This document shows positions 32,707-58,520 of a stretch of 64,000 bases of DNA, one piece after another. The stretch's first letter is position 1. Every line of letters begins with the position of its first letter. Source of the DNA: Escherichia coli (GTDB lineage Bacteria > Pseudomonadota > Gammaproteobacteria > Enterobacterales > Enterobacteriaceae); NCBI RefSeq assembly GCF_016903815.1, contig NZ_CP069973.1. The stretch is one strand, 5' to 3'. The notes below the pieces were generated by a model. That model was given only the letters and a program-made list of their open reading frames with translations, was not told the DNA's origin and did not search any database. Both the position numbers and the translations under genes were made by a program.

Positions 32707-34059
32707 ATGTTGAAATCCCCCCTGTTCTGGAAAATGACCACCCTGTTTGGTGCAGTATTGCTGTTGTTGATTCCGATAATGCTGATTCGGCAGGTGATTG
32801 TCGAACGTGCTGATTACCGTAGCGATGTGGAAGATGCGATTCGCCAAAGTACCAGCGGGCCGCAAAAACTCGTTGGGCCGCTCATCGCTATTCCTGTGAC
32901 CGAGCTTTATACGGTGCAGGAAGAGGATAAAACCGTGGAGCGGAAACGAAGTTTTATCCATTTTTGGTTACCTGAGTCATTGATGGTTGATGGCAATCAG
33001 AACGTGGAAGAACGCAAGATAGGGATTTATACCGGTCAGGTCTGGCACAGTGATTTAACGCTAAAAGCCGATTTCGATGTTTCGCGTCTTAGCGAACTCA
33101 ACGCGCCAAATATCACCTTAGGCAAGCCATTTATTGTGATTAGCGTCGGGGATGCGCGTGGTATTGGTGTGGTGAAAGCGCCTGAAGTTAACGGAACGGC
33201 GCTGACCATTGAACCCGGCACCGGGTTAGAGCAAGGCGGGCAGGGCGTGCATATCCCTTTACCCGAAGGGGACTGGCGCAAGCAGAACCTGAAGCTGGAT
33301 ATGGCACTGAATTTAAGCGGTACCGGCGATCTTTCTGTGGTGCCTGCCGGGCGTAATAGCGAAATGACCTTAACCAGCAACTGGCCGCATCCCAGTTTTT
33401 TAGGTGATTTTCTACCAGCCAAACGGGAAGTTAGCGAGTCAGGTTTTCAGGCGCAATGGCAAAGCAGCTGGTTTGCTAATAATCTCGGTGAGCGTTTTGC
33501 TTCAGGCAATGATACCGGCTGGGAAAACTTCCCCGCGTTTAGCGTCGCAGTGACGACGCCAGCCGATCAATACCAATTAACGGACCGGGCGACTAAGTAC
33601 GCCATTCTGCTGATTGCACTGACTTTTATGGCGTTCTTTGTTTTTGAAACGCTCACCGCGCAACGTTTACACCCAATGCAATATTTGCTGGTGGGGCTTT
33701 CATTGGTGATGTTTTATTTGCTCTTGCTGGCGCTTTCTGAACATATCGGTTTTACCGTGGCATGGATAATAGCCAGTCTGATTGGGGCGTTAATGAACGG
33801 TATTTATTTGCAGGCGGTATTGAAAGGCTGGCGCAATAGCATGTTGTTTACCCTCGCGCTGTTGTTGCTGGATGGTGTGATGTGGGGACTGCTCAACTCT
33901 GCCGATAGCGCGCTGTTGTTGGGAACCAGTGTGCTGGTGGTGGCGCTGGCCGGCATGATGTTTGTGACCCGTAATATCGACTGGTATGCGTTTTCACTGC
34001 CGAAAATGAAAGCCAGTAAAGAAGTTACAACGGACGATGAATTACGTATCTGGAAATAA
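32707..34059 (+). CDS. creD: inner-membrane protein CreD
   Basis: 450-aa ORF, multi-pass membrane protein. Confidence 0.92.
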   Translation: MLKSPLFWKMTTLFGAVLLLLIPIMLIRQVIVERADYRSDVEDAIRQSTSGPQKLVGPLIAIPVTELYTVQEEDKTVERKRSFIHFWLPESLMVDGNQNVEERKIGIYTGQVWHSDLTLKADFDVSRLSELNAPNITLGKPFIVISVGDARGIGVVKAPEVNGTALTIEPGTGLEQGGQGVHIPLPEGDWRKQNLKLDMALNLSGTGDLSVVPAGRNSEMTLTSNWPHPSFLGDFLPAKREVSESGFQAQWQSSWFANNLGERFASGNDTGWENFPAFSVAVTTPADQYQLTDRATKYAILLIALTFMAFFVFETLTAQRLHPMQYLLVGLSLVMFYLLLLALSEHIGFTVAWIIASLIGALMNGIYLQAVLKGWRNSMLFTLALLLLDGVMWGLLNSADSALLLGTSVLVVALAGMMFVTRNIDWYAFSLPKMKASKEVTTDDELRIWK

Positions 34060-34070
34060 GGTTGAAAAAT

Positions 34071-34097
34071 AAAAACGGCGCTAAAAAGCGCCGTTTT
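34071..34097 (+). terminator. rho-independent terminator after creD
   Basis: AAAAACGGCGCTAAAAAGCGCCGTTTTTTTT. Confidence 0.8.
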
Positions 34098-34104
34098 TTT
34101 TGTG

Positions 34105-34800
34105 CACAGAAAACCCCCAGCTAGGCTGGGGGTTCCGGAAAGCTTTCAGCTTTGAGCCAGTTATTAAAACCCCTTTTGATTTGTTAAAACACCTTGCGGT
34201 CTGGCAACTGCAAGTGTCAAACAAGAAATCAAAAGGGGGTCCCAATGGGGAACGAAAAGAGCTTAGCGCACACCCGATGGAACTGTAAATATCACATAGT
34301 TTTTGCGCCAAAATACCGAAGACAGGTGTTCTACAGAGAGAAGCGTAGAGCAATAGGCAGTATTTTGAGAAAGCTGTGTGAGTGGAAAAGCGTACGGATT
34401 CTGGAAGCTGAATGCTGTGCAGATCATATCCATATGCTTGTGGAGATCCCGCCCAAAATGAGCGTATCCGGGTTTATGGGATATCTGAAAGGGAAAAGCA
34501 GTCTGATGCTTTACGAGCAGTTTGGTGATTTGAAATTCAAATACAGGAACAGGGAGTTCTGGTGCAGAGGGTACTACGTCGATACAGTGGGTAAGAACAC
34601 GGCGAAGATACAGGATTACATAAAGCACCAGCTTGAAGAGGATAAAATGGGAGAGCAGTTATCGATTCCCTATCCGGGCAGCCCGTTTACGGGCCGTAAG
34701 TAACGAAGTTGGATGCAAATGTCAGATCGTGTGCGCCTGTTAGGGCGCGGCTGGTAAGAGAGCCTTATAGGCGCATTTGAAAAACCTCCGGCTATGCCGG
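34105..34800 (+). mobile_element. IS200-like element (IS200/IS605 family); ends approximate
   Basis: 152-aa Y1 tnpA preceded by a perfect terminal hairpin (CCCCCAGC-TAG-GCTGGGGG, 34114..34132) and a 13-bp stem (34170..34182 with 34227..34239) that sequesters the RBS. Confidence 0.6.
34245..34703 (+). CDS. tnpA: IS200-family transposase TnpA (HUH / Y1)
   Basis: 152 aa from ATG 34245 (MGNEKSLAHTRWNCKYHIVFAPKYRR...), near-identical to remembered Salmonella IS200 TnpA; HxH motif HIHMLVEIPP. Confidence 0.9.
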   Translation: MGNEKSLAHTRWNCKYHIVFAPKYRRQVFYREKRRAIGSILRKLCEWKSVRILEAECCADHIHMLVEIPPKMSVSGFMGYLKGKSSLMLYEQFGDLKFKYRNREFWCRGYYVDTVGKNTAKIQDYIKHQLEEDKMGEQLSIPYPGSPFTGRK

Positions 34801-34830
34801 AGGATATTTATTTGACGGTGGTAAAGCCGA

Positions 34831-35547
34831 TTAATCTTCCAGATCACCGCAGAAGCGATAACCTTCACCGTGAATGGTGGCGATGATTTCCGGCGTATCC
34901 GGCGTAGATTCGAAATGTTTACGAATACGGCGGATCGTCACGTCTACAGTACGGTCGTGCGGTTTCAGCTCACGGCCGGTCATTTTCTTCAGCAGTTCAG
35001 CACGGGACTGAATTTTGCCTGGGTTTTCACAGAAGTGAAGCATGGCGCGGAACTCGCTGCGCGGCAGCTTGTACTGCTCGCCATCAGGGCCGATCAACGA
35101 ACGGCTGTTGATGTCCAGTTCCCAACCATTGAACTTGTAGCTTTCAACGCTACGACGTTCTTCGCTGACAGTACCCAGATTCATGGTACGGGACAGCAGG
35201 TTGCGTGCACGAATAGTCAGTTCACGCGGGTTGAACGGTTTGGTGATGTAGTCATCTGCACCGATTTCGAGGCCGAGAATTTTATCGACTTCGTTGTCAC
35301 GGCCAGTCAGGAACATCAACGCAACATTCGCCTGCTCGCGCAGTTCACGCGCTAACAGAAGACCGTTCTTACCCGGCAGATTGATATCCATGATCACCAG
35401 GTTGATGTCATATTCAGAGAGGATCTGATGCATTTCCGCGCCATCTGTCGCTTCGAAAACATCATAGCCTTCCGCTTCGAAAATACTTTTCAACGTGTTG
35501 CGTGTTACCAACTCGTCTTCAACGATAAGAATGTGCGGGGTCTGCAT
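34831..35547 (-). CDS. arcA: aerobic respiration control response regulator ArcA
   Basis: 238-aa [33 protein letters not shown]... Confidence 0.96.
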
Positions 35548-54142: not shown

Positions 54143-55048
54143 ATGAGCATGTCTCATATCAATTACAACCACTTGTATTACTTCTGGCATGTCTATAAAG
54201 AAGGTTCCGTGGTTGGCGCAGCGGAGGCGCTTTATTTAACACCACAAACCATTACCGGGCAGATTCGGGCGCTGGAAGAGCGCCTGCAAGGCAAATTATT
54301 TAAACGCAAGGGACGTGGTCTCGAACCCAGCGAGCTGGGAGAGCTGGTCTATCGCTATGCCGATAAAATGTTCACCTTAAGCCAGGAAATGCTGGATATT
54401 GTGAACTATCGCAAAGAATCCAATTTATTGTTTGACGTTGGCGTGGCTGATGCACTTTCTAAACGCCTGGTCAGTAGCGTACTTAACGCCGCAGTGGTAG
54501 AAGGCGAGCCGATTCATCTTCGCTGCTTCGAATCCACCCACGAAATGCTGCTGGAGCAATTAAGTCAGCATAAACTGGATATGATCATTTCCGACTGTCC
54601 GATAGATTCTACGCAGCAGGAAGGTCTGTTCTCCGTGAGAATTGGCGAATGTGGCGTGAGTTTCTGGTGTACAAATCCACCACCGGAAAAACCGTTCCCG
54701 GCTTGTCTGGAAGAACGGCGGCTTTTGATTCCTGGGCGACGTTCAATGTTAGGGCGCAAATTGCTTAACTGGTTTAACTCCCAGGGATTAAACGTAGAAA
54801 TCCTCGGCGAGTTTGATGATGCCGCGTTGATGAAAGCTTTTGGTGCGATGCACAATGCAATCTTCGTTGCCCCAACGCTTTATGCATATGACTTTTATGC
54901 CGATAAAACTGTCGTAGAAATTGGTCGCGTCGAAAATGTGATGGAAGAGTACCATGCTATTTTTGCTGAGCGGATGATTCAGCACCCGGCGGTACAGCGA
55001 ATCTGCAATACGGATTATTCTGCGCTTTTTAGCCCAGCGGCACGTTAA
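54143..55048 (+). CDS. nhaR: LysR-family activator NhaR
   Basis: 301 aa from ATG 54143 ([41 protein letters not shown]...). Confidence 0.94.
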
Positions 55049-55054
55049 TCGGCA

Positions 55055-55081
55055 GCTCCCCCAAAGTTAAGGTGGGGGAGA
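55055..55081. terminator. bidirectional hairpin between convergent nhaR and the fimbrial operon
   Basis: GCTCCCCC-AAAGTTAAGGT-GGGGGAG. Confidence 0.6.
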
Positions 55082-55085
55082 TAGA

Positions 55086-56045
55086 TTAGTTGTACATTAC
55101 CACGATTTTGACTCGGCTCATTATTTGCCCGCTTGAGACATTATTTCCATATGTACGCGGGCGAATAAATAGAGGAATCTGATTACTTCCTTCATGGGGA
55201 TGCTGAAAAGAGTAGTAATTGCTTTTACCATACTGCATTTCATTCGTACCATCATTGGAGAGTTGAAAGCCTATTTGACCCGCACCGTCCTCACTGTTTT
55301 CTAAATCATTTTTTAATATGCTGGTTCCTGAATCCTGTATCGTCACTGGCTCAAAGTAATATTCAACATCACTAGGTTCAAAAACTAATTCACCTTGCTC
55401 ACCCTGGATACAGTCAAATCTTATATGATGAAACTGATAAATTTCATTATTGATACGAGACAGTACAAATCGTCCAGTGTCGATGGATTGATCTTCAAAA
55501 CCACAGGTCATTAAATTTACCTGTAAAATAGTATTTAAATTAAAATTAAAGCGGACGCTATTACAATTAGTATTATTCCCTGTACATGAACTCACTTCAA
55601 TTTCGAACAGCAAAGGAAAAGGAGTTCCTGGAAAAATATCTGCGGTGTCAGAACTATCTGATACAGATGCGATAGAATATGGAATGGTGAAATTTATCGC
55701 AGATAGCATTTCTTCTAAATTATAAGATAACTTCCCTGGAAGCTCTATTTTTTTACCGTCAGATTCAAAGGGGAAATTAATAATGTAATGACGACTTCCG
55801 ACTTTAAACCTTAAAGCGTTCTGTGTTAAAAAATGAACTTTAATGGCGTTGGTCGTCTCTTGCAAGTCTGCACACTCAATGATATTCCCGGTGTTTTCAA
55901 TTTTCTCGGCAGTTAGATTACCTTTCATACTCAGTGGCTTGAGTATATATGTTCCACGTTGTTCACCGACATTGGTCACTGCACAGGGAGCACTTTGCAC
56001 AATAAAAGAATATAGACTTAAGGTGATTAATAAAAGCCACTTCAT
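55086..56045 (-). CDS. putative fimbrial tip adhesin / minor subunit (last gene of the chaperone-usher operon)
   Basis: 319-aa ORF with signal peptide MKWLLLITLSLYSFIVQSA; larger than a pilin, consistent with a two-domain adhesin; 12 bp after the usher. Confidence 0.6.
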   Translation of the reverse strand: MKWLLLITLSLYSFIVQSAPCAVTNVGEQRGTYILKPLSMKGNLTAEKIENTGNIIECADLQETTNAIKVHFLTQNALRFKVGSRHYIINFPFESDGKKIELPGKLSYNLEEMLSAINFTIPYSIASVSDSSDTADIFPGTPFPLLFEIEVSSCTGNNTNCNSVRFNFNLNTILQVNLMTCGFEDQSIDTGRFVLSRINNEIYQFHHIRFDCIQGEQGELVFEPSDVEYYFEPVTIQDSGTSILKNDLENSEDGAGQIGFQLSNDGTNEMQYGKSNYYSFQHPHEGSNQIPLFIRPRTYGNNVSSGQIMSRVKIVVMYN

Positions 56046-56057
56046 AGTAAACTCCTT

Positions 56058-58508
56058 TTACTGGCATATATATGTTTTGTTTTCATCGATAACGTGTTGA
56101 AAAGTAATAGTACAGAATAAGTTCTGTTCATCATTGAGAGCAACTTTTATGCCAGTGGGAATTTCATCTACGCGAATAAAAAGGCGACTACCCTGGCCAA
56201 CGACTCCAATATTGTTTTCCTGGAGATCCAGTACGTCATAGCCAAAGGTTAATGGCGAACCATCGGTACGCAGTGCCTGTATATACCAGGGCTTACGTTG
56301 GTCAGTTGTAAACTGCACATAAGAAACTGCTCCACGGTAAGGCGCAATAATTTGACGATTGCCCTGCAATTCTGTTTCACTTTCACTGTTTGCTATATCA
56401 AGTACCAGATGGTTTTCACGATGAGGTATCATCAGGTCGTAAACAACCTGGCCTTTGCTGTTTGTTCGGTTGTATTTTTGTCCATTAATATGCGCGCCTT
56501 CTAACCCAGGCGCATCCAGAATTGCAAATGTATCGGATAACTGGTTAGTTATATTAATACCACCGGGCCAGACAACTAATCCACTACTAATACTTCCACC
56601 ACTTTGCCAGGCGTTTTTAGAATGGCTATAGCTGCCATCTATTGTGGCGATGGGAGTTCTCCAGCTTAAATTCGTACCAAGCGAGGTATCATTATTTTGT
56701 TGTTGCTGATTAACATATATACCATAATTTAACTGATCATGTTCACCGGCTATGCCAGTAATTCCAGTATTGTTGGAGGAATAGCCATCTTTGGAAAATG
56801 AGGTCGAATTCGATAAGTTAATTTGGTGACGTGTTTTGGCAATATCATCCCCCCAGTAGAAAGGAATGGAGATAAACAGATTAAAACGCTCCTCTTCTTT
56901 ATCGTTTTCATCATAGGATTGGCTGGCAGAGAAAGTATAACTAATGCGTTGCCAGCTATTTGAATAACTGAATTGGTAATCTTTAGCATTTCCACTTCGC
57001 CCCCAGTAATTCCGCCAAAGCGCACTTAATGATACATTTCCCAGATTATTGGATAAAGGTTGCATAATATTGGCAGAAAGGCTATTTTTTCTGCCAATAT
57101 CATAAAAATCATCATATTCACTCTGATGATTGTGTTTATCATTTTCGTAAAGATGGTCGCTGAACGTCCTGTAATCCTGCGAAGCATAACGCCAGGCGGC
57201 CACGCTAAAGCGAGTAGCCGTTTGCACTAGATATTTATTATAGGCGACCTGATAGCTCGTACCTTCGTGTGTTATATCATTATTTAACTTACTACTCGAT
57301 CGGGTAGCGTCAAAAGAGATGGCACCCAGCGGTGTATTCCAACCATTTCCCAGGGTTATAGCATTATAGTTATCGGATAAAATCGTACCGCCATAAAGTG
57401 TCAAAAGATTGTTGAGGCCATATATATAATTTGCCTCGAGAAAGTCCTCCTGATTCTTTACACCATATATCTTACTGCGTCCGGCGATAAAATCGAAATT
57501 TGAAACACCAGGTTGCAGCATGTTGGGTACGGAAGAGTAGGGGACCAAAAAGGAACGAACACTACCATCTGCTTCCTTTATGCTGACATCGAGATCTGAG
57601 CCGCTGCCTGAAAGTTGCAAATCTGCGATAGTAAATGGCCCGGGGGGAACCTCTTTTTGGTAAATGATGTAGCCATTTTGCGAAACCGTTATCAAGGCAA
57701 TACTTTGCGCAACACCTTGTACTAAAGGTGTAAAGCTCTGCATAGAATCAGGTAGCATTTGCATATCGCGAAATAAGCGTATTCCGCTAAATCGCAGAGA
57801 GTCGAATATGAGTGAGGATGTGTAATTTTCTCCTATCTGAACTGTGCTTAATATTTGCGACCAGCCACGTTCCAGGTAAAGAGTATTACTTTGCCATGTG
57901 CCTTTCATATCATCAGGCTTGCTATAGCTGGCATCAGAGTGTAATTGCCAACTAAATAAATTTAATCCGCTGTTAAAACGACCATAACTGGCTGTATTAC
58001 TATTATTATTGCTGTCATAAGAGCGATACTGACTTAAATTATAGGAGGTATAAAAAGCATCAATGCCGCGATCCCAACTTTCCGGGGGAACGTAACCTCT
58101 TTCAAGTTCATTGATATACGCCTGTGGGATCGTTAAATTTAGTCGGTGTTCACTGATATCCCACTGATATTGTCCACCATGAACCGCTTCATCCAGTAAA
58201 ATACAATTATCTTCTGTATTGAGATTATCGGTTTTTACCCCCAGTGTGGTTAGTAGCACCTTAGGCAGACATGGTTTGGCTGGTGACTCTGGGATCGTGA
58301 TATCTTGTTTCCCACGCCACTGGTGGTTTACATAAACATCAAGTTCGTAGTTTCCCGGAAGAGGTTGTTTATTATCGAAGCGATATTCGGAAACTTTTTT
58401 TCCTCTCATGCCGCCAATCATGAAGTGCGTATCAAAAGTTTCTTCAGCATAACCCGGAAAAGAATACAAAAAAATAATAGCAGCGACCCATCGTGTCGTC
58501 CTTAACAT
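56058..58508 (-). CDS. fimbrial outer-membrane usher (FimD/PapC family)
   Basis: 816-aa ORF with signal peptide; length and beta-strand-rich Tyr/Gly/Asn composition typical of ushers. Confidence 0.85.
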   Translation of the reverse strand: MLRTTRWVAAIIFLYSFPGYAEETFDTHFMIGGMRGKKVSEYRFDNKQPLPGNYELDVYVNHQWRGKQDITIPESPAKPCLPKVLLTTLGVKTDNLNTEDNCILLDEAVHGGQYQWDISEHRLNLTIPQAYINELERGYVPPESWDRGIDAFYTSYNLSQYRSYDSNNNSNTASYGRFNSGLNLFSWQLHSDASYSKPDDMKGTWQSNTLYLERGWSQILSTVQIGENYTSSLIFDSLRFSGIRLFRDMQMLPDSMQSFTPLVQGVAQSIALITVSQNGYIIYQKEVPPGPFTIADLQLSGSGSDLDVSIKEADGSVRSFLVPYSSVPNMLQPGVSNFDFIAGRSKIYGVKNQEDFLEANYIYGLNNLLTLYGGTILSDNYNAITLGNGWNTPLGAISFDATRSSSKLNNDITHEGTSYQVAYNKYLVQTATRFSVAAWRYASQDYRTFSDHLYENDKHNHQSEYDDFYDIGRKNSLSANIMQPLSNNLGNVSLSALWRNYWGRSGNAKDYQFSYSNSWQRISYTFSASQSYDENDKEEERFNLFISIPFYWGDDIAKTRHQINLSNSTSFSKDGYSSNNTGITGIAGEHDQLNYGIYVNQQQQNNDTSLGTNLSWRTPIATIDGSYSHSKNAWQSGGSISSGLVVWPGGINITNQLSDTFAILDAPGLEGAHINGQKYNRTNSKGQVVYDLMIPHRENHLVLDIANSESETELQGNRQIIAPYRGAVSYVQFTTDQRKPWYIQALRTDGSPLTFGYDVLDLQENNIGVVGQGSRLFIRVDEIPTGIKVALNDEQNLFCTITFQHVIDENKTYICQ

Positions 58509-58520
58509 GACTTTTTCCTG

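Follow-up and report, generated by a model that had tools for sequence, protein, structure and literature searches.

In the window, by which we mean the whole 64,000-nucleotide stretch of E. coli DNA that was analysed, positions 34102 to 34812 of the plus strand hold a complete, intact and probably still mobile copy of IS200C, a reading to which we assign a probability of roughly 0.88. This member of the IS200 group of the IS200/IS605 family carries tnpA only and has two subterminal hairpins on its top strand (34112-34134 and 34785-34803), each preceded by AAAA. IS200C is a known and annotated insertion sequence, found here in a typical target, and as such is not new. The element and its main parts are as follows:

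34102 to 34812, plus strand: the IS200C insertion sequence, 711 bp, running from GTGCACAG to GATATTTATT, without terminal inverted repeats and with tnpA only.
34110 to 34134, plus strand: the left-end subterminal hairpin, AACCCCCAGC-TAG-GCTGGGGGTT (34112-34134), after AAAA (34110-34113).
34245 to 34703, plus strand: tnpA, with its ATG at 34245 and a stop codon ending at 34703, encoding a Y1 (HUH) transposase of 152 aa.
34781 to 34812, plus strand: the right end, made up of AAAA, the hairpin CCTCCGGC-TAT-GCCGGAGG (34785-34803) and a 9-nt tail, ATATTTATT (34804-34812).

E. coli strain 7/2 (NZ_CP023820.1) matches the window with 100% identity, and its RefSeq/PGAP label at the identical site, between creD and arcA, reads 'IS200/IS605-like element IS200C family transposase'. 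The ends of the element were set by comparison with K-12 empty sites and with three further E. coli copies, two of them located after htpX and osmE and the third close to an integrase gene. These three and the copy in the window share the sequence from GTGCACAG to GATATTTATT, which from 34102 onward reads GTGCACAGAAAACCCCCAGCTAGGCTGGGGGTT..., and their flanks diverge. Aligned with the K-12 empty site, the htpX-yebQ copy proved to be an exact 711-bp insertion after seven T residues, with no duplication. On the other side, the right end ...CCTCCGGCTATGCCGGAGG-ATATTTATT is shared by 51 of the 52 complete copies, which come from unrelated sites in several species, and the base immediately 3' of it varied (T in 30, G in 9, C in 7 and A in 6 of the 52). 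Since the right end is constant and the next base variable, and since the left end is given by the comparison of copies, the element corresponds to 34102-34812. The earlier note, which had given 34098-34830, therefore enclosed the element but was slightly too wide. That the sequence might be native to all E. coli at this site and lack IS200 termini is contradicted by the empty K-12 site and by these conserved ends. A start at T34101, which would make the element 712 bp long and would suit the numbering of the left-end hairpin as nt 12-34 by Ellis, was rejected as a general boundary, because the htpX-yebQ copy runs from G to ATT over 711 bp with no T gained; it is also contradicted by the tandem junctions of Yersinia pestis, which read ...ATT/GTGCCC.

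Each of the two end motifs occurs once in the 64-kb window, with zero occurrences expected by chance. The two subterminal hairpins repeat each other directly, with 78% identity and on the same strand, and there are no terminal inverted repeats; related subterminal hairpins lying on one strand without terminal inverted repeats are a hallmark of IS200/IS605 ends. With regard to gene content, the family scan covered tnpA, the one open reading frame of the element with such a match, and no tnpB or iscB was seen in its 711 bp.

The product of tnpA had been read in the earlier note as a 152-aa HUH-type IS200 transposase, and all matches concur. It was recognised by Pfam Y1_Tnp (PF01797) with an E value of 4.4e-38 and by the NCBIfam equivalog transpos_IS200 (NF033573) with 147.7 bits for a cut-off of 55, and its relatives in the PDB were 2ec2 (E 4e-23), the IS608 TnpA 2a6m (E 4e-19) and 2xm3 (E 2e-16), in line with the RefSeq IS200C annotation. 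With residue numbers counted from the translation, the HuH motif corresponds to H61-I62-H63 and the catalytic Tyr/Gln motif to Y125...Q129; when the protein was aligned with solved Y1 transposases, the DHIH and Y-I-x-x-Q motifs lined up. No frameshift or catalytic substitution was seen in the TnpA of the window.

Upstream of tnpA, the leader contains two further features:

34170 to 34238, plus strand: the tnpA 5'UTR stem-loop, with a 13-bp basal stem formed by 34170-34182 and 34226-34238.
34164 to 34254, minus strand: the predicted art200 antisense RNA, its position transferred from Ellis 2015.

The core of the left-end hairpin, CCCCCAGC-TAG-GCTGGGGG (34114-34132), forms the perfect 8-bp stem that had been described beforehand, and A-T pairs on its flanks extend it to 10 bp (34112-34134). 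Folded as single-stranded DNA, this hairpin gave -11.7 kcal/mol on one strand and -11.8 kcal/mol on the other, and the single-stranded folds of the left-end and right-end hairpins together gave z values of -3.2 to -5.3. By analogy with IS608, we infer that it is the hairpin to which TnpA would bind on the top strand, with AAAA as a predicted guide-like tetranucleotide. Further downstream, CCCCUUUUGAUUU (34170-34182) pairs with AAAUCAAAAGGGG (34226-34238) in a stem that covers the Shine-Dalgarno sequence AAGGGGG, located 5 nt before the ATG. The 161-nt leader folded with -60.6 kcal/mol (z = -4.2), a stability reached by none of 200 shuffled sequences. When 14 diverse left ends of the IS200 group were aligned, several pairs of the stem over the ribosome-binding site changed on both sides and stayed paired, the left-end hairpin being invariant in this alignment by construction, as it had served as the search pattern.

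The leader was also recognised by the Rfam family STnc490 (RF01405), which is based on Salmonella IS200 and matched 34112-34235 over the full model with 146 bits (gathering score 56), positions 1-23 of the family being the left-end hairpin. Counted from G34102, the hairpin 34112-34134 occupies nt 11-33 and the stem-loop 34170-34238 occupies nt 69-137. On the map of Salmonella IS200, the left-end hairpin at nt 12-34 is a bidirectional terminator that blocks incoming transcription, tnpA transcription starts near nt 40 and the 5'UTR stem-loop spans nt 69-138 (Ellis 2015, PMC4513863). The self-silencing layout proposed for this leader, with a 13-bp stem burying the ribosome-binding site, thus stands on the fold, on the STnc490 match and on an agreement with the published map to within 1 nt.

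A trait of IS200 proper is the antisense sRNA art200 (STnc490), with Hfq-dependent repression. The published art200 has its 5' ends at IS200 nt 153/154 and a length of 90 nt (Ellis 2015, PMC4513863); on the minus strand of the window, the corresponding RNA would have its 5' end at 34253/34254 and its 3' end near 34164, beyond the complement of the stem-loop and a run of four T residues. A putative promoter for it was read from the sequence on the minus strand, with a -35 hexamer TTTACA (34289-34284), an 18-nt spacer and a -10 hexamer TAAGCT (34265-34260). This promoter is weak, its -10 hexamer matching at 3 of 6 positions, and its hexamers were not called by a generic promoter scan, which over 33900-35000 returned no sigma-70 sites, for tnpA or for art200. 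The putative hexamers do fit the remark that the -35 element of art200 is the better match (Ellis 2015, PMC4513863). The strand of the Rfam match was rejected as the sRNA strand, since STnc490 matches the tnpA-sense strand and the literature calls art200/STnc490 antisense. Extrapolating from the work on Salmonella IS200, silencing of the element would operate at three levels: (i) the left-end hairpin would stop incoming transcription, (ii) the 5'UTR stem would hide the ribosome-binding site, and (iii) the antisense art200 RNA would pair with the tnpA 5'UTR.

The surroundings of the element comprise the following features:

32707 to 34059, plus strand: creD, the upstream gene whose terminator was struck.
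34071 to 34101, both strands: the native bidirectional creD/arcA intrinsic terminator, consisting of A5, CGGCGC (34076-34081), a loop, GCGCCG (34088-34093) and T8 (34094-34101).
34813 to 34830, no strand assigned: the native spacer from the old T-run to the arcA stop codon, in which T34813 is one T beyond the T8 of almost all empty sites.
34831 to 35547, minus strand: arcA, the convergent gene, whose native terminator now lies beyond the IS.

The empty site is a single bidirectional terminator for creD and arcA, and the target of the IS is its T-run. In a K-12 derivative without the element, GCGCCG-T8-GACGG leads directly into the arcA stop region; the terminator, whose hairpin is an inverted repeat, was called on the minus strand by the terminator scan. 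Comparison of the occupied site (T8-IS-T-GACGG) with the empty one (T8-GACGG) revealed the gain of one T, which a strictly precise insertion would not predict. With respect to target duplication, then, the htpX-yebQ copy shows none and the creD-arcA site shows one extra T relative to T8 empty sites. An ancestral T9 allele was considered as the source of this T and is possible, though not favoured: nearly all empty sites carry T8 or fewer, and T9 was found in only 2 (sister) genomes of about 5300. Our conjecture is that the extra T reflects a one-base slip in register of the homopolymeric target against the AAAA guide.

An association of the IS200 group with terminators has already been reported and is not new. 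Odaert et al. are said to have proposed, in 1998 (reportedly in J Bacteriol 180:178), that stem-loops are insertion hot spots for IS1541. A 2025-26 preprint describes terminator-like sequences upstream of ISs, most strongly for IS200/IS605; beyond this statistical preprint, a search of the available literature turned up no work that sets out explicitly how IS200 would target terminators.

In a survey, one genome per species was scanned for the exact 24-nt left-end hairpin, which yielded at least 120 loci. The hosts comprised Yersinia pestis (IS1541), several Vibrio, Brenneria, Edwardsiella, Pluralibacter and Budvicia, as well as metagenome-assembled genomes (MAGs) assigned to Oxalobacter, Mailhella/Desulfovibrio, Bacillota, Peptococcaceae, Saccharibacteria and Elusimicrobiaceae. 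Under a strict definition based on a GC-core measure (a hairpin rich in G and C, with 2-12 nt from the end of its core to the IS and with T making up at least 60% of the tail), a hairpin with a T-rich tail preceded the element in 104 of the 122 unique IS200-group left flanks among the matches listed (85%). Few genomes supplied these 122 insertions, a single Y. pestis strain contributing about 56 and a single Vibrio 14. In the controls, the same structure was found at 0.75% of random positions in the same DNA, at 4.9% of positions preceded by TT and at 11.7% of T-rich positions outside long ORFs. The remaining 18 of the 122 flanks mostly showed imperfect hairpins when inspected by eye. In the 104 positive flanks, the tail had a median length of 7 nt and in 90 of them it measured 6-9 nt, the creD tail being 8 nt and the tail of the IS right end 9 nt. 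Some Y. pestis copies lie in tandem, directly after the right end of another copy, and the T-run goes on beyond the point of insertion in 58% of copies.

Drawing on the work on IS608 and ISDra2, the IS would have transposed by 'peel and paste', entering the lagging-strand template in the form of a single-stranded circle. Integration would take place 3' of a T-rich site paired with the AAAA guide that adjoins the left-end hairpin, and a terminator hairpin with a T-rich tail of 6-9 nt would mimic the IS right end (a hairpin followed by the 9-nt ATATTTATT) and become a preferred target. In IS608, according to what Barabas et al. reportedly described in 2008, each hairpin has on its 5' side a tetranucleotide that base-pairs with the site of cleavage or with the target; the guide-like tetranucleotide 5' of the hairpin is AAAA at both ends of IS200C, which fits a T-rich target. 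The literature on the IS200/IS605 family describes a single-strand pathway with lagging-strand targeting and gives TTAC as the target of IS608. The GC skew was positive on the plus strand in all eight 8-kb bins of the window, and the top strand of the IS is the G-rich strand and the lagging-strand template, the creD-arcA locus lying on the clockwise replichore by its K-12 position. Two more copies, those at htpX and osmE, point the expected way, making three copies in all, K-12 synteny being assumed.

Tentatively, and at odds that we place a little below even, we propose that IS200-group transposases choose their targets by structure as well as by sequence. They would insert 6-9 nt after a stable GC hairpin with a T-rich tail, on the lagging-strand template, where the site mimics the right end and pairs with the AAAA guide, unlike the 4-5-nt rule of IS608 and ISDra2. 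The dependence on a hairpin suggests either that terminators are used as right-end lookalikes or that the hairpin keeps the T-tract accessible. If true, such a rule would account for the terminator context seen almost universally across phyla, for the tandem IS-IS junctions and for the one-T slips, and it would also mean that each insertion replaces the downstream face of the host terminator by the right-end hairpin of the IS, as at arcA. The creD-arcA site is a textbook example of the hairpin-plus-T-tail rule, which was reportedly first noted for IS1541 in 1998 and was later seen statistically in the preprint.

The preference for terminators could, however, partly reflect the survival of harmless insertions instead of targeting by the transposase. 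Taken to its limit, this becomes the view that there is no targeting at all, IS200 needing only a T-rich site and its copies surviving after terminators because they do no harm there, which we hold to be unlikely but still worth weighing. The canonical IS608 rule, as Barabas et al. reportedly set it out in 2008, needs only a 4-nt target paired with the guide. Insertion into the spacer of two convergent genes is classically neutral and T-runs are enriched at terminators, but the T-rich intergenic controls carried the hairpin and tail in 11.7% of cases as against 85% of insertions. The preprint, for its part, reads upstream terminators as favouring the persistence of ISs; survival of this kind does not sit easily with a tail length held tightly at 6-9 nt, near the 9 nt of the IS right end, nor with the Y. 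pestis tandems, in which copies lie directly after the right-end hairpin of another copy. Moreover, the T-run extends past the insertion in 58% of copies, which means that the IS does not just land where the run stops.

The distribution of the insertion was determined in 5426 complete E. coli genomes. The creD-arcA site was occupied in 110 of them (about 2%) and empty in about 98%, as well as in K-12, in accordance with the prior suggestion of a lineage marker absent from K-12. Within the best 60 of the 110 occupied genomes, identity was 100% over the 1151-nt query. The insertion is a clean presence/absence marker of an IS200C-rich lineage that includes ST405. This sequence type is a globally spread multidrug-resistant clone. 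The carrier WCHEC96200 is published as ST405, phylogroup D, another carrier was serotyped O102:H6, and in a pangenome study, IS200C is listed as the transposable element that dominates one 'phylon'.

IS200C was present at a coverage of at least 80% in 2063 of the 5426 genomes, with a median of one place per genome. In the best 60 of the 110 carriers, each genome held 16-35 IS200 places in all but two cases (the low-copy IR53017 and AH50). The earlier note had proposed a genome-wide count of IS200 copies; in strain 7/2 it gave 22 places, including another 711-bp copy that is 100% identical. For comparison, the mean IS200 copy number of E. coli has been given as 2.9, and IS200 has been called notoriously dormant (Ellis 2015, PMC4513863). 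A usually 'dormant' element has thus expanded to about 20-35 copies in the carrier lineage, and this unusual expansion argues that IS200 has been active there and has transposed recently.

It is rather improbable that the copy in the window is, instead, a fixed and inactive relic with marker value only. The dormancy ascribed to IS200 by Ellis (2015) speaks for such a relic, and the identity of the best 60 of the 110 occupied genomes at the locus would fit one old event followed by vertical inheritance; against this, the open reading frame, the catalytic motifs and both ends are intact, the 16-35 copies of the carriers vary in number among close relatives, and identical copies exist elsewhere in the genome.

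The right end of the element deserves separate consideration, as it now faces arcA. On the minus strand, it reads as a hairpin followed by TTTTTC, with an 8-bp stem containing 7 G-C pairs, and the terminator scan rated it terminator-like on both strands. Its sequence repeats that of the left-end hairpin in direct orientation, with some divergence: the stem differences between AAAACCCCCAGCTAGGCTGGGGG and AAAACCTCCGGCTATGCCGGAGG are compensatory, so that pairing is kept. Because the hairpin at 34785-34803 ends every copy examined and is homologous to the left-end hairpin, it belongs to the IS. The earlier note had placed the element between a creD terminator and an arcA terminator, but the notion of two native terminators, with 34785-34803 as that of arcA, retains next to no probability in spite of the minus-strand TTTTT, the terminator-like score and a position 27 nt downstream of the arcA stop, as K-12 and about 5300 other empty genomes lack this hairpin and have one shared terminator directly after arcA, the same hairpin and tail end IS200C and IS1541 copies at unrelated loci, and the empty-site and multi-copy alignments rule it out as a native arcA terminator.

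With regard to local effects, the creD hairpin and all eight T residues are intact, so that creD termination should stay as it was before the insertion. On the opposite side, 711 bp now separate arcA from its native terminator. Transcription leaving arcA would first encounter the right-end hairpin of the IS, which, with the five T residues that follow it, is probably a surrogate arcA terminator, a candidate role read from its sequence. Any read-through from arcA would run antisense to tnpA, then into the left-end hairpin and then into the old terminator. An effect of the hairpins on read-through towards arcA, which had been raised before, is plausible, albeit in the reverse direction, the creD side being intact and supplemented by the terminator-like hairpins of the IS, and the arcA side changed. 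arcA encodes a global redox regulator; the 3' end and the stability of its mRNA could shift slightly, but a dramatic effect is unlikely.

Among the systems to which the element may be compared is Salmonella enterica IS200, on which Lam and Roth (1983) and Beuzon and Casadesus (1997/1999) have reportedly also worked. [quoted passage not shown] They differ in length, Salmonella IS200 being quoted at 707 bp and IS200C measuring 711 bp, a comparison made by way of the published map; likewise, the E. coli average of 2.9 copies given in the Salmonella IS200 paper contrasts with a far higher copy number, about 20-35, in the carrier lineage.

IS1541 of Yersinia pestis and Y. pseudotuberculosis is 87.8% identical to IS200C at the nucleotide level and does not differ from it in the left-end hairpin, the right-end hairpin or the tail; its copies also lie after terminator-like hairpins. 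The first 10 nt of the left end are different (GTGCCCAGAA vs GTGCACAGAA), as are host and copy number.

IS608 and ISDra2 resemble IS200C in having a Y1 HUH TnpA, subterminal hairpins in place of inverted repeats and a top strand on the lagging-strand template; they insert without target duplication, as seen for the htpX-yebQ copy of IS200C. They carry tnpB and recognise a defined target of 4-5 nt (TTAC and TTGAT, respectively), whereas IS200C is without tnpB and its putative target is a T-run that lies 6-9 nt downstream of a GC hairpin, with AAAA as the guide-like tetranucleotide at both ends.

Outside this family, bacterial class C group II introns are said to insert after intrinsic terminators, as Robart, Seo and Zimmerly reportedly described in 2007. 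Although these introns move by retrohoming, with a ribozyme and a reverse transcriptase, and have no sequence kinship with IS200C, so that the analogy applies to target choice only, they too home 3' of terminator stem-loops, in harmless sites that shield them from incoming transcription.

The lineage that includes ST405 is the site of an IS200C expansion. Among the best 60 of the 110 genomes carrying the element between creD and arcA, most harbor 16-35 IS200 places per genome, the exceptions being IR53017 and AH50 with only 3-4, while the median for other E. coli is 1. At the creD-arcA junction itself, the occupied site comprises T8 (34094-34101) on the left of the element and T34813 on its right, and almost all empty sites carry T8, leaving one T in surplus. 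An empty allele with T9 was found in two genomes only, the sister strains XJ34 and XJ6-3. The surplus T may reflect a register slip in the homopolymer, either at excision or at integration.

A T-run is also involved at the htpX-yebQ copy of E. coli FCI48 (L003). In the empty site of K-12 (L126), the stop codon of yebQ (TTA on the plus strand) is partly made of the TT of the terminator T-run; in FCI48, the terminal TT of the IS200C right end substitutes for it, so that the insertion restores exactly the stop codon of this convergent gene.

Within the element, the interval from the tnpA stop codon to the right-end hairpin contains the following repeat, which may either belong to the structure of the right end or serve as a tnpA terminator:

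34732-34775, imperfect inverted repeat TGCGCCTGTTAGG / CCTTATAGGCGCA, 13 nt, 85% complementary

Elsewhere in the window, GC content is low from about 55000 to 62000 (0.405 in the last 8-kb bin). The counterpart in strain 7/2, in the nhaR-rpsT interval, holds a chaperone-usher fimbrial cluster and espX1. The stretch appears to be an accessory island with no connection to the IS200C finding.

We also scanned for the exact 24-nt IS200 left-end hairpin. The matches listed include distant taxa (L006-L067), namely assemblies assigned to Oxalobacter, Mailhella/Desulfovibrio, Bacillota, Peptococcaceae, Saccharibacteria, Elusimicrobiaceae and Vibrio. Most of these listed matches lie at the ends of contigs, and the element's opening 7-10 nt vary from lineage to lineage. 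The presence of this hairpin in very distant taxa suggests a broad and recent horizontal spread; for matches in MAGs, mis-binning is possibly the explanation.

In Yersinia pestis NCTC5923, the related IS1541 forms head-to-tail dimers (L070, L071, L073, L087 and L117), in which the right end, terminating in ATATTTATT, abuts the left end GTGCCCAGAA either directly or with one T intervening. On this arrangement, either the right-end hairpin and tail of one copy served as target for another, or a circle junction was captured.

Finally, the Rfam STnc490 model matched the tnpA-sense strand at 34112-34235 (+), where it takes in both the left-end hairpin and the stem-loop of the 5'UTR, and scored only 18.9 bits on the minus strand. 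The strand of the match should not be taken as that of the sRNA, because STnc490/art200 is described as antisense to the IS200 5'UTR (Ellis et al. 2015, PMC4513863), which places the predicted RNA on the opposite strand:

34164-34254, minus strand, art200 antisense RNA (predicted position)
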